This document shows positions 16,636-58,880 of a stretch of DNA of 64,000 bases, one piece after another. The position numbers and the translations under genes were made by a program. The stretch comes from a virus: positions 1 to 64,000 of the IMG/VR virus record IMGVR_UViG_3300042475_001686; one strand, written 5' to 3'. Position 1 is the stretch's first letter, and the number at the start of each line of letters is the position of its first letter. The notes beneath the pieces are model-generated. The model saw only the letters and a program-made list of their open reading frames with translations, ran no database searches and was not told where the DNA came from.

Positions 16636-18009
16636 TTAGAATGTACAGTTACCACATGTAGTAGAGGTACAGTACAGTGAAGGTGGACAGTCATATCCTG
16701 CCCCACCGCCTGCTTGGCTTCCGCATTCTAGTGTACAAGTACTTGTAAATGTTGGTGGGAAGAAAGGACTCTGGAACGTTGGTGGGAAGAATGGTGTAAC
16801 ACTAAACGTTGGTGGGAAGAAAGGACTCTGGAACGTTGGTGGGAAGAATGGCGCCTGGAATGTTGGTGGGAAGAATGGCGCCTGGAATGTTGGTGGGAAG
16901 AATGGCGCCTGGAATGTTGGTGGGAAGAATGGCGCCTGGAAGTTCGGAGGGAAGAATGGATTAACCGTACATGTAGGAGTTCCTGATGCTTGTGTAGGAC
17001 CACAGACCCATCCAATTGGAGGATATCCGTTTGCGTTTTCTTGAGCAGCATATGCATCAGCACAGGACGATGTTGTTGAGAAAGGACCGTTTGGATTGTT
17101 ATTGAAATCACAGTATCCGTAGTAACTTGTTGTAGTCTGTTGGAACGTTGGTGGGAAGAATGGTGACTGGAAAGTTGGTGGGAAGAACGGTGTAAATGTA
17201 GGTGGGAAGAACGGAGGAGTGGTGCAAGATGTTATCGGAGTTGTTGTAACAGAGCCAGTCAATGATGCACTTATTGTGAAACAGAAAGTCTCAGCAGCAT
17301 TAGTTGCCTCTGTTGAGTTTGCAGCAGTAACAGATCCAACAGTATTATCATCGCAGCAGAAGTAGTATGTTGTTGTTCCTGAACTAAAGAATGGTGGGAA
17401 GAATGGAGGGAAGAATGGTGGGAAGAATGGAGTAATGGTGCATTCTGGAGTTCCATTTTGTGCTGTTGGTCCGCAAACCCATCCAATTGGTGGGTATCCA
17501 TTTGCGTTTTCCTGAATAGTATATGCTTCAGCACAGGACAATGTTGTTGAGAAAGGACCAACAGGGTTATTGGCTAAATCACAGTATCCGTAATAATTTA
17601 ATACTTGCTGGAACGTTGGAGGGAAGAACGGTGTAAATGTAGGTGGGAAGAACGGTGACTGGAATGTAGGTGGGAAGAACGGTGACTGGAATGTAGGTGG
17701 GAAGAACGGTGACTGGAATGTAGGTGGGAAGAACGGTGACTGGAATGTAGGTGGGAAGAATGGAGGGGCAACATAAGTATAATAAACAAAGGTTACATCA
17801 GTATCATAATCAACTAATGTGTCTGCTACTGGAACTTGAGAAGCAACCTTATTATCAAGTTGTGAATCTGAAGTAACTATAGAAGAGTCACCAACATTCT
17901 TAAGCCCTGAGTTTGTTATTGTGGTAATTGCTACGTTCTTTAAAAGACCTACAAGTTGCGGGACCTTTACCATTCCCTTTGCTAAAAACGGCCATAATGA
18001 ACTTAGCAT
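16636..18009 (-). CDS. PASTA-domain protein with PFFPPTFQ(S/A) repeats and Cys modules
   Basis: VKVPQLVG..VASQVP.ADTLV PASTA pattern; 27-nt repeats; duplicated YYGYCD..GYPPIGWVCGPT module; C-terminal ECG..CPPSLYC..CGNC. Confidence 0.7.
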   Translation of the reverse strand: MLSSLWPFLAKGMVKVPQLVGLLKNVAITTITNSGLKNVGDSSIVTSDSQLDNKVASQVPVADTLVDYDTDVTFVYYTYVAPPFFPPTFQSPFFPPTFQSPFFPPTFQSPFFPPTFQSPFFPPTFTPFFPPTFQQVLNYYGYCDLANNPVGPFSTTLSCAEAYTIQENANGYPPIGWVCGPTAQNGTPECTITPFFPPFFPPFFPPFFSSGTTTYYFCCDDNTVGSVTAANSTEATNAAETFCFTISASLTGSVTTTPITSCTTPPFFPPTFTPFFPPTFQSPFFPPTFQQTTTSYYGYCDFNNNPNGPFSTTSSCADAYAAQENANGYPPIGWVCGPTQASGTPTCTVNPFFPPNFQAPFFPPTFQAPFFPPTFQAPFFPPTFQAPFFPPTFQSPFFPPTFSVTPFFPPTFQSPFFPPTFTSTCTLECGSQAGGGAGYDCPPSLYCTSTTCGNCTF

Positions 18010-26813: not shown

Positions 26814-27665
26814 TTATATGCTAAGTGATGGTTCCTTAATGCTAGAAGCATCTGAAGGAGCAACCAAGTTATTTACTGGATTAATAATAGACTTGCGTCC
26901 CATCATTAATTCTTCAATATTCTGACATACAACTGTCCACTCTTCTTCAAATATTTTCTTAGAGCGTCCCATGCCGATGTCGATCTGATCTGATCTTCCT
27001 TCCTTTGCTGCCATTTCTTTTACTGTCTTTTCAGAGTCCCAGTTAAGAATTGTGCATTGGAAATGCTTATCAACATATCCATCCTTGTCGACAAGATACT
27101 TTTCAAAGTTTCCACCCATGTATAGTCCATCATAGAAACCACGATTTAACCACCAGGAGAAGTATTTATCTCTAAACATTTCTCTGTGATCCATTCCAGT
27201 ATTGTTTACTTTTTCTTTAGCAGCAATCTGGTGCTTTCTGATTTCTAGATATAACTCGTGTGGTTCACCAAAAGGTTGTCCAAGTCCGTTATGTCCTGGC
27301 TCTACTCCTAACTGCTGGCTTACGCCTGAACCTGGAATTGAAGATACCATTTGTGAGAATTGAAAAGTTGTTCCATAAACATCTTTTCCGTAATTTGCTG
27401 AGTCTGCTCCACAAGTAATACCTTCTGACCATTTACCGTGTGTGATTCCAGGACCACAATAGTCATTGGTTGGAATAGCAACTATCTGAAAGTGCTCTCC
27501 ACCGTACTTATCTTGTAGCCATTGTAAAACTTCCATTTGATTTGCGTTACCGCATCCAACCGTAGTGTTAACAACTAGGGTTACTTTTCCTCTAAATTGC
27601 TCTAGGAAGTTGGTCTGCCCGTCGGCAGAATCTAATGATATATCGTATATAGATTTAAGTGTCAT
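26814..27665 (-). CDS. glutathione peroxidase-like protein
   Basis: GKVTLVVNTTVGCG..LQDKY..IVAIPTNDY..NFEKYLVDKDG. Confidence 0.75.
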   Translation of the reverse strand: MTLKSIYDISLDSADGQTNFLEQFRGKVTLVVNTTVGCGNANQMEVLQWLQDKYGGEHFQIVAIPTNDYCGPGITHGKWSEGITCGADSANYGKDVYGTTFQFSQMVSSIPGSGVSQQLGVEPGHNGLGQPFGEPHELYLEIRKHQIAAKEKVNNTGMDHREMFRDKYFSWWLNRGFYDGLYMGGNFEKYLVDKDGYVDKHFQCTILNWDSEKTVKEMAAKEGRSDQIDIGMGRSKKIFEEEWTVVCQNIEELMMGRKSIINPVNNLVAPSDASSIKEPSLSI

Positions 27666-27843: not shown

Positions 27844-28233
27844 TTAGCGTTCCTTTGACATGTAGATGTCTTCTACTACGAAACCATTTTCTCTATCATA
27901 GATAACCCAGTCAATAGCCTTTATATCAAACCTTTCATTCAGTGCATTAAGTACTGTGAACTTATCTAGGCTACCACAGGTGTATAGATCGAATTGCAGT
28001 AATCCTGGATCTACCTCGTCCCAAATGTGAAATGCTATATGGCTTGTTTCAATCATAACAATTGCTGTCAAACCTTTATTGCCAGGAGCATCTACATATG
28101 ATGCAAATGGTCCCTTAATTATTTTCATATCTACCCTGCGAACTAGGTCTTTTAAGAACTCTACCGCCTCATCTTCTGATCTGATGGGGTTAGACACCTT
28201 TGCGTTTACTAACATGTGCTTATGTAATATCAT
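27844..28233 (-). CDS. speD: S-adenosylmethionine decarboxylase proenzyme
   Basis: GLTAIVMIETSHIAFHIW..QFDLYTCG; start placed at MILHKH after TGGTATAAT. Confidence 0.8.
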   Translation of the reverse strand: MILHKHMLVNAKVSNPIRSEDEAVEFLKDLVRRVDMKIIKGPFASYVDAPGNKGLTAIVMIETSHIAFHIWDEVDPGLLQFDLYTCGSLDKFTVLNALNERFDIKAIDWVIYDRENGFVVEDIYMSKER

Positions 28234-28356
28234 GGATCCATTATACCAAAAATCTGAATTTTTTGCTGAAATGTATGATACGGGAAATAATAATAAAAAA
28301 GCAAAAAAAATAGTGAGCACATAGCCCACCACTTCTTTTATTTATAGATCCGCTAC

Positions 28357-28560
28357 TTAGTCAATAAGTTGTTCCACTGCCTGCTTTTCCCCGACAATCC
28401 ACCCGTTGTGAATTCCGATAAGTGGTGCGTCAATACAAACCGCAACACCTTTTGGCAACTGTGCTGGAAAGAAACCTATAAAATTTTCTACTGCTTGTTT
28501 ATTGTAAAACGGAATAGTCTTAGACTCTCCGCTAACTGTTGTTAGTTTTACTTGTATCAT
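28357..28560 (-). CDS. hypothetical protein
   Basis: AGGAG RBS. Confidence 0.5.
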   Translation of the reverse strand: MIQVKLTTVSGESKTIPFYNKQAVENFIGFFPAQLPKGVAVCIDAPLIGIHNGWIVGEKQAVEQLID

Positions 28561-28680
28561 TGTTATTTTCTCCTAATTCTATTTTATCATGTAAGTAATG
28601 TGAGCGGTCATAATTTGCTAATGTCCCGCCATTTTCTAAGTGTGCTTTTCTGCGTAATTGTTCTACGCTATACCCTGCCA

Positions 28681-28791
28681 CTATAACACGCACTCGCAAG
28701 GCTCAATGGCGTAATCCTCGTTATCACCATAAAAGATGTGCCCTCTGCCTGAGCATGTATCGCAATCTATTGTTTGAACTGAGTTTATCAT
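28681..28791 (-). CDS. 36-aa zinc-finger-like peptide (not in the ORF track)
   Basis: MINSVQTIDCDTCSGRGHIFYGDNEDYAIEPCECVL; AAAGGA RBS; resembles 31833..32045. Confidence 0.55.
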   Translation of the reverse strand: MINSVQTIDCDTCSGRGHIFYGDNEDYAIEPCECVL

Positions 28792-28847
28792 TTATTTATC
28801 CTTTTCTTTTTTGTTGATGTAATTCTATCAGGGGGCACTGACAAGGA

Positions 28848-29033
28848 CTAACCTTGCCAATGTGGAGAATAATCTCCGTCTGTAATCTCTGTTGAGAGAA
28901 TATCATAACCACTTGATACAAGAGTATCTAATAGGTCATTTATTTGACGCTCACTAACCATGAGGCGATTTGATACAGAAACGAGAGTATCCTCTTTCTG
29001 TGCTGTATAACTTAGGTTTAGCATATTTGCCAC
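28848..29033 (-). CDS. hypothetical early protein
   Basis: AGAAAGG RBS, own promoter. Confidence 0.5.
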   Translation of the reverse strand: MANMLNLSYTAQKEDTLVSVSNRLMVSERQINDLLDTLVSSGYDILSTEITDGDYSPHWQG

Positions 29034-29116
29034 CTAACCTTTCTTTTTTCTAATACTGTTATTCTATACCCTGCCACTGACATTTTGGGGGGTGTCTGTG
29101 GTGTCCCCCGTGTGAT

Positions 29117-29224
29117 TTATCTCACACTATTTAGCGAATCTACACAATTCGGACATATCGCAGGGATACTGCGCTTAGAGACATAAGTGGTCTGACCACA
29201 CAACATACATTTTTTCTTACTCAT
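29117..29224 (-). CDS. 35-aa zinc-ribbon peptide (not in the ORF track)
   Basis: MSKKKCMLCGQ..ICPNC; AAAGAAAGG RBS. Confidence 0.5.
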   Translation of the reverse strand: MSKKKCMLCGQTTYVSKRSIPAICPNCVDSLNSVR

Positions 29225-29494
29225 AACTAACCTTTCTTTATAGGAGAATAATAACATAGAACACTGACAAAGTCAACACGACACGCCGATAAAATAAAAA
29301 ATATTTTGTGTTCTGTATCACATGTCCTAAATGTCCGATTTTCCTAGGCAACCTAGGGGGTTATCCACAGGCTGTGTATAAGTTATGTGTCTAAGGTCAC
29401 AAAAATAGTTTCCCGACACGCCCGAAAAACAGGCTAATTTGTCAGTCCCCCCTGATAGGATACCAGTATAACAAAAAGAAAGGTAGGTCAGAAA

Positions 29495-29692
29495 ATGACT
29501 ACACTAAATAGAAATGAAGTAGTAGATTTGTTAATTGAAATGGATTTCTGCTTAACAGATAAAATCTGCGTATTTTGCTCATCACTAACAGATGGTTGGA
29601 ACGCTATCTGCTACTCTTGCCGTGACTATAAAGGCATGATGAACATTGTTGAAGCCGTAGAATACTACGGAACAGATATTCTCCCTGTGTGA
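29495..29692 (+). CDS. small Cys-rich early protein
   Basis: CVFC..CYSC; RBS. Confidence 0.55.
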   Translation: MTTLNRNEVVDLLIEMDFCLTDKICVFCSSLTDGWNAICYSCRDYKGMMNIVEAVEYYGTDILPV

Positions 29693-29777
29693 GGTAAATC
29701 ACACCCACGCTACGGCGTGTCGAATTGACATTTTTACAAAAGTATGAAATAATAAAATTATAAAGAAAGGTCGAAAA

Positions 29778-29924
29778 ATGACTACATTTGATAGAATACT
29801 AAAGGCTCAACAAGAGCAACGCAAAATCCAAGCGATAAAGGATAAAGCCGTGGTTGAGAGTTTATTCTCTAATAATCCACGCCCTCTCAATAATGCCTAC
29901 CTACTAAAACAGGCTGAGAGATAA
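29778..29924 (+). CDS. 48-aa hypothetical protein (not in the ORF track)
   Basis: TAAAGAAAGG RBS, TTGACA promoter. Confidence 0.5.
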   Translation: MTTFDRILKAQQEQRKIQAIKDKAVVESLFSNNPRPLNNAYLLKQAER

Positions 29925-30005
29925 ATCACAAAAACTAACGGCGTGTCGATTTGATTTCTACGCCAAAATATGAAATAATAGGATACATAAAGAAAGGTAA
30001 AAACT

Positions 30006-30218
30006 ATGAAAACTTATTCAATTGAAGATTTGCTGGTAGATACTTACTACGCACCTCGTTCTCTACGCCGTCGTTTCAATGGCGGAATTATCAACCACGC
30101 AGAAAAGCGTGAGGATATTTATTTATCAGAAGGCTATGAGGCTTTCGCTATTCGCTACCGCCCAACAGGTCGTTTCAATGACGAATGGGCTACTGTCGCC
30201 GTAAAGGTGGCAGACTAA
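30006..30218 (+). CDS. hypothetical early protein
   Basis: AGAAAGG RBS. Confidence 0.55.
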   Translation: MKTYSIEDLLVDTYYAPRSLRRRFNGGIINHAEKREDIYLSEGYEAFAIRYRPTGRFNDEWATVAVKVAD

Positions 30219-30330
30219 TGAAACTTGATGAATTCAAGGCTTATATTGAAGCACAGCGCAAAGCGCAACAATTGACAAACTCAGAGAAAATCGCTAAAAT
30301 TGTATCAACAACTAAGAAAGGCAATAACTA

Positions 30331-30591
30331 ATGACTACAACAACTTATACAGATTACCCATTTACCGCTCAAGGTGTAAAATTTATTTCAAGAGTATATA
30401 ATAATTCACCAATGGCAAATCAAATTGCTATGCTTCCCGCAGGCGTATTTACTCAAATGAATCTTCAAGCAATTACAGACTTGTTAGGTGATGCTTCAAT
30501 TCTAACTCATACAGAATTAGTAAATGAATTAGAAAAAATCAACGAAGGTGGCTCAACTGCTTTCATTCTATTAGATGAGGAAAATAAATAA
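30331..30591 (+). CDS. hypothetical early protein
   Basis: AGAAAGG RBS. Confidence 0.55.
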   Translation: MTTTTYTDYPFTAQGVKFISRVYNNSPMANQIAMLPAGVFTQMNLQAITDLLGDASILTHTELVNELEKINEGGSTAFILLDEENK

Positions 30592-30785
30592 TGTCACTAA
30601 CTAAATCACACTTCAAGGCTATCGCCTCAATTCTAAATGATGTCAAAGATGAAATTCACCCGCAGGTCTATGAAGACCTCGTGGAAAGTTTCGCAGTTTA
30701 TTTCTCAACTAAAAACGAAATGTTCGACAAAGCAAAATTTGAAACTGCTTGCGGTGTTGATGAGATAGGACTAATTCCAGTATGA
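30591..30785 (+). CDS. conserved small phage protein
   Basis: TKSHFKAIA..FDKAKFETAC. Confidence 0.55.
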   Translation: MSLTKSHFKAIASILNDVKDEIHPQVYEDLVESFAVYFSTKNEMFDKAKFETACGVDEIGLIPV

Positions 30786-31263
30786 TGAGAATTCTAACTA
30801 CACTTGTTCAAATTGGTTTAGTGCTTTCAATTTATTTTATAATTAGAAATGCCACGAAAGAAAACTAAATTTAGTAAATGCGAAATCTGCGGTAGAATTT
30901 TTATCGCAGATCTAAAGTGTTTTGTGTGCGCTGCTAAAAATGCTTGAACTTTCAACTAAAATCGCCTAGGGGGTTTTCCACAGGTTTATCCACAATGTGA
31001 ATTACGTTACAATGTGAATTTCCCCACAGATTTATCGGCGTGTCGGATTGAAAATGTCAGTAGAAAATGATAGGCTGGAAGCCTGAAAATAAAGAAAGGA
31101 TAACTAATGAAAAAAAATGTTCTAATTAGTTTTGTTACTGAAGCAGACTCAGATTTATCTGCTGTATTTGCTCTAAATAAAACTTTTCTAAATTTGCCTG
31201 AAAACGAATTAGCAAAGTTTGATGTGTTTGATGTTGTCGATGTTGTAGAGGAGGCTCAATAAA

Positions 31264-31761
31264 ATGGGTTTGGATATGTATCTCCACGCTAAAAAGTATG
31301 TGGAAAAAGTAAATTGGCAGGCGTTACAGGATAATGATGAATTGTCTTATGACTCTCCTGAAGTGGTATTCCCTTTGTGGAATAATATTGTTGAAACAGC
31401 AGGAATGAAAGATGTTGCTGTTGATATCTATGGCGTTCATGTTGAAGTAACTTGTGCTTATTGGCGCAAGGCTAATCAGATACACGCTTGGTTTGTAAAG
31501 AATGTTCAGGGTGGAGAAGATAATTGTGGAGAATACTATGTATCCCATGAGAAATTGAAATCTCTACTTGATCTTGTGAATAAGGCTTTGGCAGAGCGTA
31601 ATCCTAACTTGTTACCCCCACAAGCAGGATTTTTCTTTGGCGGTACTGATATCGATGAATGGTATTGGCAAGACCTAAAGAATACTAAGGCTAAATTGGA
31701 CAGAGTATTTGCTCTACCCGAAATGTCCAAATTGTCCTTTTACTACACTTCTTCGTGGTAA
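31264..31761 (+). CDS. conserved phage protein
   Basis: MGLDMYL..YWRKANQIHAWF..GFFFG..YYTSSW. Confidence 0.65.
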   Translation: MGLDMYLHAKKYVEKVNWQALQDNDELSYDSPEVVFPLWNNIVETAGMKDVAVDIYGVHVEVTCAYWRKANQIHAWFVKNVQGGEDNCGEYYVSHEKLKSLLDLVNKALAERNPNLLPPQAGFFFGGTDIDEWYWQDLKNTKAKLDRVFALPEMSKLSFYYTSSW

Positions 31762-31832
31762 AGGGCGTGGGGGATTTGATTTTGTCAGTCCCCCATGATA
31801 AGGTTAGATTATTGAAAGAAAGGAAATAAAAA

Positions 31833-32045
31833 ATGGATAAATTGGAATACGCACTACGGACTATTGCTAACTGCGACCTATGCTACGGCAAGGGTTATCA
31901 TGGATTTGCTAATGGCGAGGACTACGACATGGAGGACTGCGAGTGTAATATCTACGGGCTAATCCTTGACGAAGACGGCTCAGTATTATTTGACAATGGC
32001 TTACTAAGTGAGCCTCAATTATTTACAACACAGGAGGCTTACTAA
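31833..32045 (+). CDS. zinc-finger-like protein
   Basis: CDLCYGKG..DCECN. Confidence 0.55.
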   Translation: MDKLEYALRTIANCDLCYGKGYHGFANGEDYDMEDCECNIYGLILDEDGSVLFDNGLLSEPQLFTTQEAY

Positions 32046-32046
32046 T

Positions 32047-32328
32047 ATGGGAAGTAATTTCGCACACGATTTAGCGTTGTTTGATGATATGGCTATTGAG
32101 AAGCAGATTAGAATTCACTTGTCTGCTAATCACTACCCACCCGTTCCACCTATCATGGTTCAACCTTGTGTTGAAGCCATTGACGCTGTGAATGACGCAG
32201 GACTTTGGGATTTAGAAATTCCTATGCCTGAAGGTGTAAGTTATAAAGGTTTGACTACTGCTCCTGCTTGGGCTATTATTGAACAACACCACCTTGATGC
32301 GTGGCTTATTGAAAGAGAGGAAGTCTAA
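32047..32328 (+). CDS. hypothetical phage protein
   Basis: HLSANHYPPVP..AIIEQHHL; start at MGSNF after GGAGG. Confidence 0.55.
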   Translation: MGSNFAHDLALFDDMAIEKQIRIHLSANHYPPVPPIMVQPCVEAIDAVNDAGLWDLEIPMPEGVSYKGLTTAPAWAIIEQHHLDAWLIEREEV

Positions 32329-32469
32329 TGAAATTTGATGAAATGGTAGTAAAGGTTCTTGACCTATTCCCTGAAGCGTTCTTCCATGAAGGAGAAGATG
32401 GCGAGGTAGTAATCTCAACAGGCTTCAGACTTGTAAATGACGAACTAATAGCGATGGAGGAAATCTAAA

Positions 32470-32679
32470 ATGGAATACACTTACTCACTTACTACTTCCT
32501 ATGACGGAAGCCTTGTAAATACCCTGCGAGTATCAGACATGCTTGAAGCCGTAAATGTGTGGGATAAATGCGTAGACTTTGGAGATGCTAAGGAATACGC
32601 AACCTACAACCTATCAGACCCAACAGGTAAAATGTATACAAAAACCTTTTATCGTAATGGAGAGGTATCCATTCGCTAA
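32470..32679 (+). CDS. hypothetical protein
   Basis: GGAGG RBS. Confidence 0.5.
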   Translation: MEYTYSLTTSYDGSLVNTLRVSDMLEAVNVWDKCVDFGDAKEYATYNLSDPTGKMYTKTFYRNGEVSIR

Positions 32680-32913
32680 ATGTCTGATACAATGATTCGT
32701 ATGGAAGAAGACTTTCGCTTGGTAGATATTCTCAACGCAGACCAATTAGAAGTAGGAGATCTAATTGGTTTGAATGATGAAGTTGTTAGAGTAATTGAAA
32801 TTGCCCCAGCAAAATTTGGTTATGTTGTCACCTATGAAAATGAATTTGGTGAAAAAGAAATTTCAGATATAACTGATGATGAACGTTTTGAATTATTTAT
32901 AGAAAACTTCTAA
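32680..32913 (+). CDS. hypothetical small beta-barrel-like protein
   Basis: ADQLEVGDLI. Confidence 0.45.
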   Translation: MSDTMIRMEEDFRLVDILNADQLEVGDLIGLNDEVVRVIEIAPAKFGYVVTYENEFGEKEISDITDDERFELFIENF

Positions 32914-33145
32914 AAACCGCCTAGGCGATTCGGACAATTCGGACATTTGCATTTTTGTTATTTTTATGATAAGATTATTACATGATGAAAAAAACGGCTG
33001 AGGAATTACGCAGACTTATGGAATTACGCAGATCTAATGCTGCAACTCCATTAAGGAATAAAAAATCCTACTCCCGCAAAGTTAAACACAAAAAATTTGA
33101 CTTATCAAAATAAAAATGTTATAATAAAAATAAAGAAAGGAACCC

Positions 33146-33865
33146 ATGAAACTAAAACGTAGCATGGACAGAAAGGTAACTAATGCCGTCTCACCCAATG
33201 GAAAAACCCCAACAATTGCCAACACTTTTGGATTGCCTGCTGGAAAGGCTTTCTCGTGCCCTGGTGCCACCAATACTTGTGAAAGTGTTTGTTACGCAGG
33301 AAAACTTGAAAGAGTATACAAAGGAGTAAAGGCTGTACTCCTGCACAATTGGGAATTACTAAAAGACGCAGACCATGACACTATGGAAAACCTGCTGCAG
33401 GAAATGATTGAAGACTTTAGAAAAGATTGTGAAAAGAAAGACGCTCCTCTGCTATTCCGCATTCACTGGGACGGGGACTTCTTTTCTGATGAGTACGCAT
33501 TCGCATGGAAACACGTTATTCTAAATAACCCTGATATCAAATTCTGGGTTTATACACGTGTAGCCTCTGCTGCTAATATGCTAAAGAATATAGATAACTT
33601 ATCTCTATACTATTCAACAGATAAAGATAACAAAGAGATTGCTATTAGTCTAAATAAGGAAAAGGGCATTCGATTGGCATACCTTGCGGATACCTTCGCA
33701 ATTGGGCAGGCAGACCTAAAGGCAATGATAGGCAAGCCTGGTGCTAAGTGTCCTGAGAATAAAAAGGCTATTCCCCTAATCTCACAGGCAGGCAGCGCAT
33801 GCGTGTCTTGTGGCTTGTGTATTGACGAGAAATCTGATATAGTATTTAGCGCAAAGAAAAAGTAA
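33146..33865 (+). CDS. mycobacteriophage gp88-like protein
   Basis: SCPGATNTCESVCYA, FRIHWDGDF, WVYTR, C-terminal CVSCGLC. Confidence 0.65.
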   Translation: MKLKRSMDRKVTNAVSPNGKTPTIANTFGLPAGKAFSCPGATNTCESVCYAGKLERVYKGVKAVLLHNWELLKDADHDTMENLLQEMIEDFRKDCEKKDAPLLFRIHWDGDFFSDEYAFAWKHVILNNPDIKFWVYTRVASAANMLKNIDNLSLYYSTDKDNKEIAISLNKEKGIRLAYLADTFAIGQADLKAMIGKPGAKCPENKKAIPLISQAGSACVSCGLCIDEKSDIVFSAKKK

Positions 33866-34051
33866 GGGACAGATGAAAATAATACTATTATTAGGGTGGG
33901 CTATGCTCCTATGGGTGCTTTTCTATCCCCCCCTAAAGTGACCTATCTCACAATCTCAAAATGTGAGAAATGTCAGAAATAACTTGACACAGCAAAAAAT
34001 AAATGTCATAATAATAACAAGTAAGAAAACAACTAACAAAGGAGAAAGAAA

Positions 34052-34219
34052 ATGGCAGTAGCAACAGCAACCTACAAGGTAGGCGACCTATACACCTCAC
34101 AGAAGTCAAAGGTTACAGGCACTATCACAGAAATCAAGCCAAACAAGGACGGCTCAACTGTTCGTGTCAAACTTGATGTCAATGGCACACCTCGCTGGAC
34201 AACTTGGACAGCAAAGTAA
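34052..34219 (+). CDS. 55-aa SH3/KOW-like protein (not in the ORF track)
   Basis: YKVGDLYTSQKSKVTGTI..VRVKLDVNGTPRW; AGGAG RBS. Confidence 0.6.
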   Translation: MAVATATYKVGDLYTSQKSKVTGTITEIKPNKDGSTVRVKLDVNGTPRWTTWTAK

Positions 34220-34235
34220 TTCCTAATACAGGAAA

Positions 34236-34264
34236 AGTCCTGAGCATGACTACTAAAACTGCTC
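34236..34264 (+). ncRNA. 3'-UTR H-type pseudoknot motif, copy 1
   Basis: AGTC-CTGAGCAT-GACT-ACTAAAAC-TGCTC. Confidence 0.7.
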
Positions 34265-34331
34265 ACTTGACTTTCTAACTGAAAAATGTTAGACTATAAA
34301 TAACCCAAAACCCATAAGAAAGGAAAACAAA

Positions 34332-34754
34332 ATGGCAAGAAGCCAAAAAGCAATTAGCGTGAAAATCGCTACGACTAAAGTTATCAAGGCTTTAGAAACT
34401 AAGTTAGCACAAATCCAAAAGGATAAGGCTAATCAAGCAACTAACGAGGAGAAGTTCAACAAGGCTCACGAAAAGTGGTCTAAAGATGTTGCTAAACTTT
34501 CTCTCAACGCTATCAACAAGGCAGAGGACTTATCTGCTAATCTAAGATACAATGGCATGGTTCATGTTTCTTTTGATTTGCCTAAAGGTTCTATTGACCT
34601 ACCTGCTCAACCTGAAAAGGATTTTGACACTTATCATGAGTGGCAATACAAAGAAATGGTAGATGAAATTGAGAACGCTATTCGTATTCTCAAGATGACA
34701 GATGAGGAAGTAGTTTCTACCTCAACTTACAACGCTATCGCCCGATACTTGTAA
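34332..34754 (+). CDS. hypothetical coiled-coil protein
   Basis: TTGACT..TAGACT promoter, AGAAAGGA RBS. Confidence 0.6.
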   Translation: MARSQKAISVKIATTKVIKALETKLAQIQKDKANQATNEEKFNKAHEKWSKDVAKLSLNAINKAEDLSANLRYNGMVHVSFDLPKGSIDLPAQPEKDFDTYHEWQYKEMVDEIENAIRILKMTDEEVVSTSTYNAIARYL

Positions 34755-34759
34755 TTCAC

Positions 34760-34786
34760 TCTCCTGAGCATGAGATAAAACTGCTC
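34760..34786 (+). ncRNA. pseudoknot motif, copy 2
   Basis: TCTC-CTGAGCAT-GAGA-TAAAAC-TGCTC. Confidence 0.7.
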
Positions 34787-34815
34787 ACTAACAAAATAGA
34801 CAGAAAGGAAAACAA

Positions 34816-34983
34816 ATGACACTCGGAGGCTACACTTATCAGGTAGGAGATTTATTTACTACCAGCAAGACAGGCGTTACAGGACGAATTGAAAAGTTTG
34901 TTCCACAAAGTAAAAATGTAACTCGTGTAATGCTTCGTTTGGCAAATGGTCAGCAACGATTTGCTATGGTAAAGACTTACTAA
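34816..34983 (+). CDS. 55-aa paralog of 34052..34219 (not in the ORF track)
   Basis: YQVGDLFTTSKTGVTGRI..TRVMLRLANGQQRF. Confidence 0.6.
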   Translation: MTLGGYTYQVGDLFTTSKTGVTGRIEKFVPQSKNVTRVMLRLANGQQRFAMVKTY

Positions 34984-35068
34984 TAAAATTGTTACTCTGT
35001 GTTCAAGGCAGACTGCGACACAAAATCGAATTGTGTTGATCTTTCTGCGAAAGTCCCTTGAGTAACCT

Positions 35069-35096
35069 TACTCCTGAGCATGAGTATAAACTGCTC
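35069..35096 (+). ncRNA. pseudoknot motif, copy 3
   Basis: TACTC-CTGAGCAT-GAGTA-TAAAC-TGCTC. Confidence 0.7.
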
Positions 35097-35224
35097 CCCT
35101 CTCAAAAAATCGCCTAGGCAATGTGATTTAAAACACAGTCCACTATGTGAGATAGTTTACGTTCTCGATTTGATTTCCCCTCTAAAAAATGTTATGATTA
35201 TATTATCTAAGAAAGGATAAATAA

Positions 35225-35488
35225 ATGATTAGCACCGCAATAGCAATACAAATGGCAACGCAGGACGCAGTTCATGACGAGAGTGTTATGGATTTGGCTT
35301 CTGCTCTTTATCATCACAGAAATGAAATGAGCGACGAGGACTTTGCTAAAGCAATGTTTATGTATTCTGCTCATCTATCAGCAATGACCGCTACTTTAGT
35401 TACTCATGCCTGCTTGACTGAAAGCCAACTAAATGATATGCTTGAAACAATAAAGGAAATGGATTCCATGGGAAAGGATATTGAATAA
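35225..35488 (+). CDS. hypothetical protein
   Basis: AGAAAGGA RBS. Confidence 0.55.
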   Translation: MISTAIAIQMATQDAVHDESVMDLASALYHHRNEMSDEDFAKAMFMYSAHLSAMTATLVTHACLTESQLNDMLETIKEMDSMGKDIE

Positions 35489-35928
35489 TGGAAACAACAG
35501 AAACCGTAGTACCCGAACACTACAACTCCAATCAACTCGTAACTTATAAGGTTATTGAGAATGGTGCCGCTACATATCCAACCGTAAAGGTTGTGGACCT
35601 TGAGTGGGACCTGTATCAGAATCGTTCTAATGCAGCCAGTCTGTCTCAATACATTAATAAAGTAAATCAGTTAGAGAATCGTCTTCCTGATTATCTTGAT
35701 ATGGATTCAGAAGATATTGTCTCTGATATCTGCAGCATTTTTGGATTCAACCCAACTAAGGAAATTGAATTCGAGGCAACAGCCACAATTACTGGTCGTG
35801 TACTTGTACCACTTAGTGATTTAGCAAACTTTGATATCGACGACATAGACTTAACCGTTTATGCAGATTCACATTCACACGACGTTGAAGTTGATGTAGA
35901 AGTTGACCACATCTCTCGTGTAGACTAA
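35488..35928 (+). CDS. acidic hypothetical protein
   Basis: Translationally coupled to the upstream gene. Confidence 0.55.
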   Translation: METTETVVPEHYNSNQLVTYKVIENGAATYPTVKVVDLEWDLYQNRSNAASLSQYINKVNQLENRLPDYLDMDSEDIVSDICSIFGFNPTKEIEFEATATITGRVLVPLSDLANFDIDDIDLTVYADSHSHDVEVDVEVDHISRVD

Positions 35929-36009
35929 TAAATTTCTTGGCCTTCATGAAAGGGGCCAAGATCTGCAAGCATTGCTCCTCTTTCATCCTTTCTTTAGGGA
36001 GCATGCAAG

Positions 36010-36038
36010 GGACCTGAGCACGTCCACGTAAACTGCTC
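36010..36038 (+). ncRNA. pseudoknot motif, copy 4
   Basis: GGAC-CTGAGCAC-GTCC-ACGTAAAC-TGCTC. Confidence 0.7.
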
Positions 36039-36173
36039 TTTAAAAATTGCCTAGCCCGCAAAATCTTATTTTGTCAAATTTACGGCGTGTCGGGACATTT
36101 ACGTACCAGGATTTGCAATTGTCAGAGGGTTATGCTAAGATTGATAAATCACTTACAGAAAGGACAAAAAATA

Positions 36174-37190
36174 ATGGCGCATGAATTAGAAACGCAAAAT
36201 GGCGTTGCTTCTTTCGCATCATTCCGTGAACCTGCTTGGCATGGTCTTGGCACAGTATTCACGGAAGAAAAAACAACAGCAGAAATGTTATCTGCTGCTA
36301 ATCTAAACAATTGGAATGTTCGTCTTGAGGACGTAAATGTTCCATCTCACTTATCGTCAGATAAATCTTATCAATATGTTGTTCGCACTAACCCTACGGA
36401 TAACACACAGACCGATATTCTCGGTGTTGTTGGTGAGCGTTATCATGTTTTACAGAATGAAGATTTATTCTCATTCGGTGATAATATTCTTGACGGCGGA
36501 GGTCGTTGGGAAACTGCTGGCTCTATTCGTGGAGGTCGTGTTGTATTCGGTTCTCTTGCTCTTGAGCGTGAAACTGTATTAGACCCAAATGGTGTTGCGG
36601 ATAAGGTCAAAACTTATCTTCTCATCAATACATCACATGACGGCTCTATTGCTATTCAAGCAAGTATAACACCTGTTCGTGTTGTATGCGCTAACACTCT
36701 AAACCTTGCTCTTGGCTCTAAGCGTGGGCGTAATGCTATCAAGCAATCTTTCAAGATTCGCCACACACAGACCGCTAATGGTAAAGTTCAAATTGCTCGT
36801 GAGGCTCTTGGTCTTGCTAATGCTTACATGGACGCTTTCGACATCATGGCTAAACAAATGATTGAGAAAGAAATCACAGCGCAACAGTTCAATGATATTG
36901 TTCTCGCTGCGTATCCTAAGCCTGATGAAGAAAAGAAGGGCGCACTTACTCGTTGGACTAACAAGGTTGATGTTATCAATGACATCTACACAGGTGAGTT
37001 CAATGGCATGATTGCTGGCAATGCGTGGGGTGCTTTCAATGCTCTTACTGAACGCCTTGATTGGCATCGTTCTGCTCGTGGTGGAAATACTGAGGCAATG
37101 CTCGCTGCTGCTTCTGGTTTTGACGCAACAATTACAGCAGAAAAAAATCGCTTGCTAACTGTTGTAAAAAATACTTTGCAACTCGCATAG
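36174..37190 (+). CDS. DUF932-family phage/plasmid protein
   Basis: MAHELE..PAWHGLG..ETAGSIRGGRVVF..NTSHDGS..TPVRVVCANTL. Confidence 0.8.
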   Translation: MAHELETQNGVASFASFREPAWHGLGTVFTEEKTTAEMLSAANLNNWNVRLEDVNVPSHLSSDKSYQYVVRTNPTDNTQTDILGVVGERYHVLQNEDLFSFGDNILDGGGRWETAGSIRGGRVVFGSLALERETVLDPNGVADKVKTYLLINTSHDGSIAIQASITPVRVVCANTLNLALGSKRGRNAIKQSFKIRHTQTANGKVQIAREALGLANAYMDAFDIMAKQMIEKEITAQQFNDIVLAAYPKPDEEKKGALTRWTNKVDVINDIYTGEFNGMIAGNAWGAFNALTERLDWHRSARGGNTEAMLAAASGFDATITAEKNRLLTVVKNTLQLA

Positions 37191-37194
37191 CAAA

Positions 37195-37222
37195 ATTTCC
37201 TGAGCATGAAATAAAACTGCTC
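37195..37222 (+). ncRNA. pseudoknot motif, copy 5
   Basis: ATTTC-CTGAGCAT-GAAAT-AAAAC-TGCTC. Confidence 0.7.
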
Positions 37223-37336
37223 AATTTTTATTTTTCAATTTGCAGATCATAACAAAAAATGCCTAGCAAAACCGACAAATCGGACATTGTATTTTTGTAA
37301 ATATTTTATTACGTAGCACTTGCTTTTTTTGCTGGA

Positions 37337-40189: not shown

Positions 40190-41083
40190 AAACCATATCA
40201 AACCACAAACCATAAAACCATTTTACGAATGTATTACGAACCATTGTAAATTTTTCCCAGAAAGATTACGATCCAAACCATATTTTCCCCAAACCATATA
40301 GCATAATATTTTTGGTTTGTCAAACCTTCAAGCCATAGTGTATGATTGTTTGTATAGTACTAGGGGTATTACGATGTCTTTTATATACCCCGCCGTTTTT
40401 TAAAGACATTACGAACGCCGATTTCTTCCCCCCTCCAGAAAGTTTGGCGGGAATAAACGGGAGTATAATAATTATATGAGTCCCCGTCACTTTTCAAAGA
40501 TGTATCAAAACAAAAGTCAACACAGACATGATCAGCAATCTGACTGGGACTCTTTTACAAAAGACATGACGGTTTTGACTGGTATGTTATACTCAATTGC
40601 AAAGGCACCTCTCAAACCATTCATCCCTGCCTTCTACAAAACGGCGGGAGAAGTTAAAAAAGATTACGAACCTCTCTATAATCCCCCTATAAAGGAATAA
40701 CAAACCATATTTCCTGGTTTTAAAACATTTTAAAAAGTATTACGAACTTATTGGAATTTTTCCTGGATATTTGGCAATTTTCATCCAAAATAGATTACGA
40801 ACCCTATTGACAAACCATGGTTTTGGATGTATAATGCCCAAACCTTATATGATGGTTTGACAATATCGGGCATATATGGTATGAGGGTTTGTGAGGTTTG
40901 AAGATATTGGGTGTGAGGGTTTGTGAGGTTTGGGATTACGAACGCCATCTATAAAAACGTTCCATTCACCACTATCCTCCACTTCACTCCACTTTAACCC
41001 TATCCAATAATATAATCAGTAAGATTTATCTGTGGATAACTTGTGGATAACTAATGTCAAACCGATGATAACCCTGTGGATAA
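40190..41083. repeat. iteron-like TTACGA and AAACC repeats plus three DnaA boxes (origin candidate)
   Basis: Nine TTACGA copies at 40223-40936; TGTGGATAA at 41031, 41042 and 41075. Confidence 0.6.
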
Positions 41084-47744: not shown

Positions 47745-47818
47745 GGAGCAGTAGCCAAGTTGGTCAAGGCCCCGAACTCATAATTCGGTTATCGTAGGTT
47801 CAAGTCCTACCTGCTCTA
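47745..47818 (+). tRNA. tRNA with CAT anticodon (elongator Met or Ile2)
   Basis: Cloverleaf; CCGAA-CT-CAT-AA-TTCGG; lacks initiator features. Confidence 0.85.
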
Positions 47819-47822
47819 CTTT

Positions 47823-47895
47823 GCCCTTGTAGCCCAGTGGTAGAGGCACACGACTTAAAATCGTGCAAGCGTTGGTTCGAATCCAACCAGGGGCA
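47823..47895 (+). tRNA. tRNA-Leu(TAA), short variable loop
   Basis: CACGA-CT-TAA-AA-TCGTG; GGTTCGAATCC. Confidence 0.85.
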
Positions 47896-47899
47896 CTAA

Positions 47900-47972
47900 A
47901 CCTCTGTAACTCAGTGGATAGAGTAGCGGACTTCTAATCCGTTTGTCGTTGGTTCAAATCCAATCAGAGGTG
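47900..47972 (+). tRNA. tRNA-Arg(TCT)
   Basis: GCGGA-CT-TCT-AA-TCCGT. Confidence 0.9.
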
Positions 47973-47987
47973 CTACAATAGTAATAT

Positions 47988-48060
47988 TGATCTGTAGTTC
48001 AGTTGGTAGAACACTCGACTGTTAATCGAGATGTCGCAGGATCGAGACCTGCCAGATCAG
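47988..48060 (+). tRNA. tRNA-Asn(GTT)
   Basis: CTCGA-CT-GTT-AA-TCGAG; atypical T-loop ATCGAGA. Confidence 0.8.
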
Positions 48061-48115
48061 CGATACAGACACGGTAGGAATGGGAATAGGAAGACCTATC
48101 GTGTCTGTATCATAT

Positions 48116-48189
48116 GGTCCGTTAGTTCAGTTGGTTAGAACGCTACCCTGTCACGGTAGAGGTCGTCGGTTCAAGTCCGATACGGATCG
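48116..48189 (+). tRNA. tRNA-Asp(GTC)
   Basis: CTACC-CT-GTC-AC-GGTAG. Confidence 0.9.
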
Positions 48190-48193
48190 CATT

Positions 48194-48265
48194 GGCTCCA
48201 TCGTCTATCGGTTAGGACATCAGATTTTCAATCTGGGAAGACGGGTTCGATTCCCGTTGGGGCTA
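48194..48265 (+). tRNA. tRNA-Glu(TTC)
   Basis: TCAGA-TT-TTC-AA-TCTGG. Confidence 0.9.
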
Positions 48266-48308
48266 CGAGTTTGATATAATGGAATAACTACTAGTAGAAG
48301 GAAATGTA

Positions 48309-50393
48309 ATGTCAGAAGCAAAGTGCCCATTTACGGGTAACAGTTTAAATAATGAAGGAACATATAATAAAGATTGGTGGCCAAACCAATTAGACTTGTC
48401 TCCTTTAAGAAAGAATTCATCTAAGTCAGATCCAATGGGAGAAGACTTTGATTATGCTGAAGAGTTTAATAGTTTAGATCTTGATGCAGTCAAGAAGGAT
48501 ATTGATACACTTCTAACTACCTCGCAAGATTGGTGGCCTGCTGATTACGGCAACTATGGACCACTATTCATTCGCATGGCATGGCATAGCGCAGGAACAT
48601 ATAGAACAACTGATGGTCGTGGTGGTGCTGGAGAAGGTCTACATAGATTTGCCCCACAAAACTCATGGCCAGATAATGGTAATTTAGATAAGGCTCGTAG
48701 ACTTTTATGGCCTATCAAACAAAAATATGGAAAGAAGATTTCATGGGCAGACCTCATGATTCTTGCTGGTAATGTTGCTCTTGAAAACATGGGCTTTAAA
48801 ACTTTCGGTTTTGGTGGAGGTCGTGTAGATGTTTGGGAAGCAGACGATACATATTGGGGTAGCGAAAAGGAATGGCTTGCAGACAACCGTTATAGCGGTG
48901 ATCGTGAGTTAGAGAATCCTCTTGCTGCTGTACAAATGGGTTTGATTTATGTCAACCCTGAAGGACCAAACGGTAATCCAGATCCATTGTTATCTGCACG
49001 AGATATCCGTGAGACATTCGCAAGAATGGCAATGAATGATGAAGAGACCGTTGCTCTTATTGCTGGTGGACATGCATTCGGTAAAGCACATGGTGCTGGA
49101 GATCCCAAGAATGTTGGACCAGAACCAGAAGGCGCATCTATTGAAGAGCAGGGCCTTGGCTGGAAGAATTCATTTGGTAAGGGTAATGCAGAAGATACCA
49201 TTACAAGTGGTATTGAAGGTGCATGGACTCCTACACCAACTAAGTGGGATAACTCCTACTTAAAGATTCTATTTAAGTATGATTGGAAGCAGGTAAAGTC
49301 TCCTGCTGGTGCGACACAATGGATTCCTACAGATGAATCTGCTGTTAATTTAGTACCAGATGCACATGTTGAAGGAAAGTTTCATGCTCCAGTGATGACA
49401 ACAGCAGATTTGGCTCTCAAGTTTGATCCAGAATACGAAAAGATTTCAAGAAGATTCTTAGAAGACTTTGACTATTTCTCAGATCAATTTGCTCGTGCTT
49501 GGTTTAAACTAACACACAGAGATATGGGTCCTGTTGCTCGTTATCTTGGCAAAGAAGTTCCTACAGAAGAACTAATTTGGCAAGATCCAGTACCAAGCAA
49601 TGTTAATATGAATATTGATGTAGAGTCTATCAAGAAGGCTATTAAGTCTTCTGGTATACCACTATATTATTTCGTATATACTGCGTGGTCTTCTGCATCT
49701 ACTTTCCGTAAAACAGATAAGCGTGGTGGAGCAAATGGTGCACGTATTCGCTTGGAACCTCAAATAAGTTGGGACTCCAACAATAAAGAAGTTATCTCCA
49801 CTGTAATTAATTATTTAGAAACATTGCAGAAGGAATACTCAGCATCATTAGCAGACTTAATTGTTCTTGCTGGATGCGCTGCTATCGAAAAGGTATCTGA
49901 AGAAAAGGTTGTAGTACCATTTACACCTGGAAGAACAGATGCAACACAAGAACAAACAGATGTGGAATCATTTAGTGTTCTTGAACCGATTGCAGATGGC
50001 TTTAAGAATTATTTAAAAGATGGAGTTATAACTCCTTCAGAAGTTCTTTTAGTTGAAAAGGCAAATATGCTAAACCTAACACCAGTAGAGATGGTTGTTC
50101 TATTGAGTGGAATGAGAACATTAATGACAAACAGACTAAGCAATGGTTATTTGATCAGTTTGTTATCTGGACAAATTACCTGGAAACAAACATCTATCAA
50201 TAATTTTGAAGGATATGTTGGTGGTGATCTTATAGGTAACGCAAGTCGTGTTGATCTTATTTTCGGATCTAATTCAGAACTTCGTGCTATTGCAGAAGTC
50301 TATGCTTCTGACGATGCAGAACAAAAGTTTATGGATGATTTTGCTCAGGCATGGAATAAGGTAATGATGCTTGATAGATTTGATGTAAGATAG
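48309..50393 (+). CDS. katG: catalase-peroxidase
   Basis: [43 protein letters not shown]; two-domain architecture. Confidence 0.97.
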
Positions 50394-50401
50394 TAGGGGT
50401 T

Positions 50402-50473
50402 GCCTCCTTAACTCAGGGGTAGAGTACCCGCCTTGTAAGCGGGTTGTCGTAGGTTCAAATCCTACAGGAGGCT
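50402..50473 (+). tRNA. tRNA-Thr(TGT)
   Basis: CCCGC-CT-TGT-AA-GCGGG. Confidence 0.9.
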
Positions 50474-50489
50474 CTGATATAATTTGGTT

Positions 50490-58586: not shown

Positions 58587-58880
58587 TCATTTTTGATCCT
58601 CATCAAGCGTTAAATTCTTCCATGTATTACCCCAGTCAGATTCTGTCTTATGGCTGTTAAACTCTTTAGATATGGCTCCAGATTCTAAATAAATACCGCC
58701 CCATACTCCATACTCTTTGCTTGATACACCTACAGCAAAACAAGTTTTAACAACTGGACATTGCATACATAGCGCATCAATTGCTGGTCTTAATAACTCA
58801 TCCTCTTCATATTTATCAAAGAATAAGTTAGTATCATAATCCAAGCAAGTCGCTGCGTCTTTCCATTTAAGTTTGTGCAT
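58587..58880 (-). CDS. whiB: WhiB-family transcription factor
   Basis: WKDAATC..FF..CMQCPVVKTC..YGVWGG. Confidence 0.9.
   Translation of the reverse strand: MHKLKWKDAATCLDYDTNLFFDKYEEDELLRPAIDALCMQCPVVKTCFAVGVSSKEYGVWGGIYLESGAISKEFNSHKTESDWGNTWKNLTLDEDQK

Follow-up and report, generated by a model that had tools for sequence, protein, structure and literature searches.

A conserved 9-bp box on predicted early promoters of a lake-water phage family matches the extended mycobacterial binding site of the regulator WhiA

The stretch of DNA examined here (the window) comprises the first 64 kb of the 117,492-bp virus record IMGVR_UViG_3300042475_001686, which is rated complete and has a G+C content of ca. 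36%. Within it lies the divergence point between a rightward arm of small genes, 21 kb in length, and a leftward arm that is likewise long, and this region is marked by a repeated 9-mer, CGACACGCC (reading GGCGTGTCG on the other strand; referred to as the box). The box occurs six times in the window versus 0.04 times expected, and none of 100 dinucleotide shuffles reached this number. The first-pass annotation of this DNA had listed an identical 9-mer at six positions (Table 1), and this was borne out by the exact count, the shuffles and a mismatch scan, as the window contained no one-mismatch site beyond the six exact copies. The rest of the virus record held no further copy, and the reversed-word control gave a count of 0. 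All six boxes are intergenic relative to the credible genes on the open reading frame (ORF) map of the window, and the asymmetric GACAC core is present in each of them. The segment from 28800 to 30915, with four of the boxes, was matched without difference by contigs from two lake-water DNA runs, among which the window's own source sample may be found.

Each box is associated with a promoter-like sequence (Table 1). Read as GGCGTGTCG, four sites share one arrangement, in which the box precedes 2 nt, TTGAnn, a spacer of 17 nt with TGn at its end, a –10-like hexamer, then AAAGAAAGG and an ATG. Such a distance of 2 nt between box and TTGA had been annotated earlier for three boxes; the spacing proved correct, and the strand-correct count is four, comprising the minus-strand box at 29279 and the plus-strand boxes at 29714, 29940 and 31037. 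Genome-wide, the box-tied promoter-like sites are six of ca. 21 strong non-coding ones, so that the box marks a subset. At five promoter-like sites a box lies within 30 nt upstream, and box 2 belongs to the promoter at 29433 with its weak –35. Behind the box promoters lie genes for small proteins without any family match, and Pfam and PHROGs searches with 20 proteins encoded near the boxes yielded no DNA-binding families.

Table 1. Positions of the boxes, the associated predicted promoter elements and further genes in the window.
Feature	Position	Strand	Details
Box 1	29279..29287	minus	Reads GGCGTGTCG; direct register, 2 nt upstream of the leftward promoter –35
Leftward promoter	29248..29276	minus	TTGACT, 17-nt spacer with TGTCAG, TGt, TATTAT; then AAAGAAAGG, ATG 29224
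Box 2	29414..29422	plus	Reads CGACACGCC; inverted register, 10 nt upstream of the –35 position
First rightward promoter	29433..29461	plus	Weak non-consensus –35 GCTAAT; TGTCAG 29440-29445; TGa; TAGGAT 29456-29461; ATG 29495
Box 3	29714..29722	plus	Direct register, 2 nt upstream of –35
Box 3 promoter	29725..29753	plus	TTGACA, 17 nt, TGa, AATAAT; 11/12 matches, with TG; ATG 29778
Box 4	29940..29948	plus	Direct register, 2 nt upstream of –35
Box 4 promoter	29951..29979	plus	TTGATT, 17 nt, TGa, AATAAT; ATG 30006
Box 5	31037..31045	plus	Direct register, 2 nt upstream of –35
Box 5 promoter	31048..31076	plus	TTGAAA, TGTCAG at 31055 in spacer, TGa, TAGGCT; ATG 31107
Box 6	36084..36092	plus	Minor direct register; –35 of the DUF932 gene promoter lies 19-20 nt downstream
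DUF932 gene promoter	36112..36141	plus	TTTGCA/TTGCAA, TGTCAG 36120, TGc, TAAGAT; ATG 36174
TGTGA-N6-TCACA palindrome	29688..29703		10 nt upstream of box 3, centre near –64.5 of the box 3 promoter
TGTGA-N6-TCACA palindrome, second copy	29111-29126		Imperfect copy at 29915-29930
TGTCAG elements	29264-29269(–), 29440-29445, 31055-31060, 31783-31788, 36120-36125		Also 28843(–), 29082(–)
WhiB-like (Wbl) gene	58587..58880	minus	97 aa; four Cys, GVWGG turn, aromatic patch residues
S-adenosylmethionine decarboxylase-like gene	27844-28332	minus	Leftward arm
Glutathione-peroxidase-domain gene	26814-27665	minus	Leftward arm
PASTA-domain gene	16636-18009	minus	Leftward arm
Mtd_N tropism-determinant-domain gene	9588-11555	minus	Leftward arm

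With the DUF932 protein as a query, 418 related IMG/VR stretches were retrieved, and 80 loci (1.33 Mb) were kept. These loci contain 224 exact boxes versus 2.0 expected from composition, and the 27 one-mismatch variants were all far rarer, with 0-25 occurrences each. The least variable positions were those of ACAC (1-12 one-mismatch variants each, vs. 16-39 at the flanking positions), and GTGTC alone was not enriched (1412 observed vs. 1693 expected). Moreover, every locus with an upstream flank of 8 kb or more (51 loci) carried the box; not one of the 224 boxes lay downstream of the DUF932 start, and the majority was located 3-8 kb upstream of it. Five other complete genomes (114-120 kb) carry 2-6 boxes each, all within at most 7.3 kb, with a reversed control of 0. 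A megablast of 28500-32500 against cultured phages gave no matches. A second short word was seen in this region: a tandem CGGACA(A/T)TT repeat (32920-32946) abuts the –35 (TTGCAT, 32947) of a promoter without a box, and the CGGACAT word, which also occurs next to boxes in relatives, may be another operator.

The position of the box relative to the promoter was determined in 194 distinct contexts, anchored on the extended –10 TGnTAnnnT and assuming the –10 hexamer at –12 to –7. In direct orientation, the –10 hexamer begins 24-26 nt after the box in 56/194 contexts (46 at exactly 25), placing the box at ca. –46 to –38 with GACAC on the template strand and centred near –41. In inverted orientation, the hexamer begins 33-34 nt after the box in 48/194 contexts (46 at exactly 33), placing the box at ca. 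–54 to –46 with GACAC on the non-template strand and centred near –51. Minor peaks were found at 42-43 nt for the direct (7/194 contexts) and at 44 nt for the inverted orientation (4 contexts; 5 in the 43-45 window counted as register). The four registers thus take in 116 of the 194 contexts, the remaining 78 being without such a –10 there, and no other offset was found more than 7 times. Scoring separately via the –35 returned the same two classes, with a gap of 2 nt (61 contexts) or 10 nt (30 contexts) between box and –35, the latter corresponding to 13 nt from GACAC. Since the GACAC centres of the two main registers are 10 bp apart, they lie on the same face of the helix, one turn from each other. 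The box is invariant, family-wide, confined to the early control region and locked to sigma-A-type promoters.

Both registers also share a second landmark. A GTGR-N6-YCAC palindrome ends 11 nt before the box in 11 of the 56 direct-register promoters (9-12 nt in 15/56), and starts 3 nt (24/48) or 12-14 nt (22/48) beyond the box in the inverted-register promoters, so that in either class its centre falls near –64.5 or one helical turn beyond that. Because this palindrome keeps a common coordinate, the two registers appear to be built on a shared promoter frame. In the genome examined here, its TGTGA-N6-TCACA form was found at two sites (four strand counts) versus 0.3 expected, and is CRP/GlxR-like in sequence.

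The direct-register position coincides with that of a proximal UP element, which raises the alternative that another host component reads the box, i.e., either a different regulator or RNA polymerase itself (via the alpha C-terminal domain or sigma region 4), with the box acting as an unusual G+C-rich upstream element. The helix-turn-helix of WhiA and sigma region 4 have indeed been described as reading GACA alike. However, an element read directly by the polymerase is not expected to work when inverted and moved 8-10 bp further upstream, UP elements are A/T-rich, and we know of no other published actinobacterial factor whose motif matches the box, so that this alternative appears improbable. 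We consider it very improbable that the boxes are non-transcriptional elements such as replication-origin iterons, packaging signals or parts of an RNA hairpin or terminator. DnaA-box-like TTATCCACA words do occur in the same region, and next to boxes in relatives, and a terminator-like hairpin spanning box 2 was predicted by a simple scan; against this, the box is positioned exactly to the base pair relative to the –10, and the tightest cluster of DnaA-box-like words lies elsewhere, at 41039-41083. The hairpin over box 2 was rejected as a terminator, showing no covariation in 21 relatives (consensus energy of –0.61 kcal/mol, 0/6 pairs compensatory).

With regard to sequence, the phage box is an exact copy of the extended WhiA site. 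In Mycobacterium tuberculosis, chromatin immunoprecipitation sequencing (ChIP-seq) of WhiA is reported to yield the motif GACACGCC in 48% of 149 peaks, and the same motif was obtained in vitro by IDAP-seq with pure WhiA and by WhiB2 ChIP-seq, with an earlier M. tuberculosis data set giving CGACACGCCGn (PMC13473873). The box matches GACACGCC and CGACACGCCGn at 9/9 positions. In 121 of 195 distinct contexts the box is followed by a G, so that the match is lengthened to 10 bases; correspondingly, GGCGTGTCG is preceded by C in 121/195 and by G in 64/195. WhiB2 of M. smegmatis is reported to act via cGACACGc (PMC9040748). In Streptomyces venezuelae, GACAC alone is described as conserved, with monomeric WhiA binding in either orientation and acting as an activator or a repressor (PMC3781837). 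The first-pass annotation had called the boxes WhiA-like on the basis of a 5-bp GACAC: the likeness holds for the full 9-mer as the extended mycobacterial consensus, but not for the 5-bp word cited, given its lack of enrichment in the family. Literature searches (WhiA with phage, and the literal 9-mer) found no papers on WhiA sites on phage promoters.

The sepX promoter complex of S. venezuelae, solved by cryo-electron microscopy, provides a structural frame for comparison. There, WhiA recognizes GACAC with its tethered C-terminal helix-turn-helix, WhiB forms a bridge between WhiA and sigma-A region 4 and covers 7 bp of the minor groove immediately upstream of the –35, and the long WhiA linker was proposed by the authors to permit either orientation and a variable distance (PMC10243135). 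The use of two orientations one turn apart on the phage promoters fits a tethered monomer such as WhiA. Moreover, sepX and the phage promoters show the same element order, i.e., an upstream A/T or alpha-CTD (C-terminal domain) region, the WhiA motif and the –35 (PMC10243135), and the inverted register resembles sepX in having GACAC on the non-template strand and a gap before the –35. In contrast to sepX, the direct register leaves 2 bp where WhiB sits, and most phage box promoters have a near-consensus –35 together with an extended –10. As for actinobacterial WhiA sites in general, the phage boxes share with them 8-10 identical bases, an asymmetric sequence and a location in promoter regions in either orientation; in terms of their sequence, they are set apart as perfect copies in fixed registers on a phage genome, whereas those published for bacteria are degenerate and differ in their spacing.

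A search of the phage for an HTH_WhiA domain found none at E <= 1, so that WhiA as a binder would have to be supplied by the host. Alternatively, a phage-encoded sequence-specific protein might bind the box and activate or shut early promoters, the likeness to the WhiA site then being mimicry or coincidence. Candidates would be the unannotated small early proteins, which stand behind the boxes without a family match, or a 51-aa generic helix-turn-helix protein (genome 70964-71119, minus strand) that matches phrog_9759 ('DNA binding protein') and gives a Sigma70_r4_2 hit below threshold (20-22 bits, cut-off 25.7). That nine positions are constrained, in excess of the 5-bp Streptomyces core, and that a host regulon was not found in the sampled genomes (see below), would suit such a protein. 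Nevertheless, a 9/9 (often 10/10) match to the independently determined site of a host factor is very unlikely by chance, the two orientations one helical turn apart suit a tethered monomer, and the 51-aa protein shows no link to the box and resembles the DNA-binding ends of homing endonucleases. We therefore regard a phage-encoded binder as unlikely.

Another alternative accepts WhiA as the binder and supposes that replication of a phage genome, each copy of which carries 2-6 perfect sites, draws WhiA away from the division and replication promoters of the host, the association with phage promoters being secondary. WhiA is indeed described as controlling division and replication genes, the phage sites are perfect consensus copies while the small genomes sampled hold few or none, and the 78 contexts outside the registers could be accommodated in this way. 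However, a simple sink has no need of exact promoter registers in 116 contexts, and some complete relatives have two boxes only, which makes such titration hardly probable.

The phage further encodes a Wbl protein, and the annotation of a phage WhiB at 58587 was confirmed by a match to Pfam PF02467 (E 1e-11, 45.6 bits, cut-off 23.6). The gene is present in all six complete genomes, i.e., the one studied here and five relatives, and residues C12, C38, C41, C47, W6, F20, F21 and W60 are invariant in the six proteins, which also share GVWGG and a conserved acidic Trp-containing tail. W6, F20-F21 and W60 align with the sigma-A4-binding aromatic patch of WhiB1 defined in PMC13013590. The hallmarks of the Wbl family, i.e., four cluster-binding Cys, a G[VI]WGG turn and the sigma-A4 aromatic patch, are thus all present. 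Among solved structures the best match was WhiB1 (E 1.5e-6), with S. venezuelae WhiB at E 1.1e-3, so that in this comparison the protein was not closest to the WhiB/WhiB2 subfamily. As its similarity to WhiB1 exceeds that to Streptomyces WhiB, a pairing of the protein with WhiA finds no support in the sequence. A complex prediction for the Wbl protein with the N-terminal domain of S. coelicolor WhiA and a 4Fe-4S cluster, run with no controls, scored 0.00 and is uninformative either way. The whole-genome box search placed no box near the phage whiB gene, and thus gave no sign of feedback on it. That the phage WhiB might act with host WhiA at the box promoters and thereby couple infection to host cell division, as proposed in the first-pass annotation, would be conjecture. 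WhiBTM4 of mycobacteriophage TM4 is comparable in being a phage-encoded Wbl protein with cluster ligands and sigma-A4-binding residues. It is reportedly an inhibitor of WhiB2. The TM4 work differs in dealing with the effect of the protein on the host, whereas the new element here consists of cis sites on the phage's own promoters.

According to the literature, Wbl proteins occur exclusively in actinobacteria and actinobacterial phages. When the DUF932 protein was compared with cultured-phage records, at least 473 of the 555 matches belonged to Mycobacterium, Streptomyces, Microbacterium, Arthrobacter, Gordonia or Rhodococcus phages. Because of the Wbl gene in 6/6 complete genomes and these actinophage matches to DUF932, an actinobacterial host is indicated. 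Host naming via a KatG-like gene of the phage was rejected, as the 60-65% identity to proteins of many phyla is uninformative. In the bin of a small low-GC actinobacterial genome, a contig of 4 kb (L256, G592:C70:3490-4064) carries the box, followed by a T-run and GTGA words as in the control region of the phage; this contig probably stems from a related phage that was binned with the genome, and gives a weak lead to the host. Contigs from one RNA-labelled run were rejected as evidence for promoter use, being contigs of relatives that show no starts, strands or levels; they were 90-99% alike over the coding parts of 30.2-37.0 kb, and carry-over of DNA is possible.

Taken together, we lean, on balance, towards the box being a cis-regulatory element on the early promoters of a freshwater actinobacterial phage family with genomes of ca. 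115-120 kb, with host WhiA as its likeliest binder. To judge by the sequence of its sites, the phage probably couples its first genes to this cell-cycle regulator of its host. The link to WhiA is drawn because of the published motif, and not via a demonstrated host regulon. In this proposal, monomeric host WhiA would bind the box via its C-terminal helix-turn-helix, and the flexible linker would let the remaining protein reach RNA polymerase from either orientation. WhiA, together with a WhiB-type partner on sigma-A region 4, might then raise or gate transcription of the first phage genes, and early phage expression would thereby track the WhiA/WhiB state of the host. More speculatively, the phage Wbl protein, made from a different transcription block, might replace host WhiB2 as the partner or compete with WhiB2 for sigma-A, and such competition would switch off the box promoters and the host division genes later in infection.

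Several observations weigh against WhiA as the reader of the box. In direct-register promoters, box and –35 are no more than 2 bp apart, whereas WhiB takes up 7 bp at this position in sepX, and with their near-consensus –35 and extended –10 these promoters look self-sufficient. A 9-bp specificity in the host is assumed to be as in mycobacteria, whereas S. venezuelae conserves GACAC alone. The phage also encodes small helix-turn-helix proteins as potential DNA binders. Furthermore, none of the 401 genomes sampled from the phylum contained the composite direct-register promoter pattern, and in 12 of 17 small genomes the 9-mer occurred 0-4 times, no more than the reversed control. The 16 sites read in seven low-count genomes (six of these twelve and G370, which has five copies) lay mostly within open frames. 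When the 9-mer was compared with its reversed word in actinobacterial genomes, one survey covering 301 genomes (G297 unpublished), the excess of 2-8-fold seen in many of them was rejected as the mark of a host regulon, being a codon-usage effect in G308. The latter genome has 103 copies of the 9-mer versus 12, and its 83 sites with full flanks showed 71% G+C and three-base periodicity, with a TAnnnT within 70 nt in 0/83 cases in direct and 1/83 in inverted orientation. Finally, Streptomyces phage NootNoot, which shares the DUF932 gene, has two copies of the 9-mer, one per terminal repeat, and the copy that was located lies inside the annotated gene gp006.

The spacers of the box promoters hold a further recurrent word. 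Promoters dependent on PafBC (RecA-NDp) are described by tGTCgg(N10)tA(N3)T, a –26 element without a –35, and TGTCAG-N10-TAnnnT with the same spacing is present in 4/6 box promoters here. Unlike PafBC-dependent promoters, most box promoters have a –35, and TGTCAG is one base off the stated consensus, making this a link in sequence only. Genome-wide, TGTCAG-N10/11-TAnnnT was found 10 times versus 2.9 expected, with 7 cases in the control region, and in relatives TGTCAG stands at spacer position 1 in 17/56 direct-register and 25/48 inverted-register promoters. In M. tuberculosis, a WhiA peak is reported 42 bp upstream of the LexA-independent recA promoter P1 (PMC13473873).

These elements could be combined into a wider scheme, which we consider doubtful as a whole. 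Early promoters would be composed of borrowed host words, i.e., a CRP-like one at ca. –64.5, a WhiA one at ca. –41 or –51 and a PafBC-type one at –26, and would fire by multiple inputs from the nutritional, cell-cycle and DNA status of the host; the phage Wbl protein would later take sigma-A region 4, turning off the box promoters and the host division genes, and the two WhiA registers would represent natural design rules for the orientation and spacing tolerated by WhiA/WhiB. How the orientation and spacing of a WhiA site affect activation was raised as an open question by the authors of the sepX structure (PMC10243135), and perfect sites in two exact registers would offer compact natural promoters for testing such rules. 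In actinobacteria, division and replication are controlled by WhiA and WhiB2, both of them essential regulators. If host WhiA indeed reads the box, the phage would sense the cell-cycle state of its host through the host factor's own operator, and a concrete reason for the frequent whiB genes in actinophages would be at hand. The phage family is common in lakes, as seen from its 418 related contigs and from 16 lake-water runs that hold 75-97% of the sampled words of 28800-37300.

Further features were noted elsewhere in the genome. DnaA-box-like words (TTATCCACA / TTWTCCACA) number 8 exact copies versus 1.8 expected (41039-41083 on the minus strand, 29361, 30974 and 30986). Three of these words fall within 45 bp in a non-coding gap at ca. 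41.04-41.08 kb, a candidate replication origin, and in relatives such words often come directly after the box. The leftward arm encodes proteins resembling S-adenosylmethionine decarboxylase (PHROG E 3e-16) or carrying glutathione-peroxidase, PASTA or Mtd_N tropism-determinant domains. In addition, the KatG-like gene (48309-50393, plus strand) encodes a catalase-peroxidase of 694 aa that contains two peroxidase domains (Pfam E 4e-66). This gene, which is unusual among the auxiliary genes of phages, is flanked by seven tRNA genes (Met, Leu, Arg, Asn, Asp, Glu and Thr; 47745-48266 and 50402-50474).

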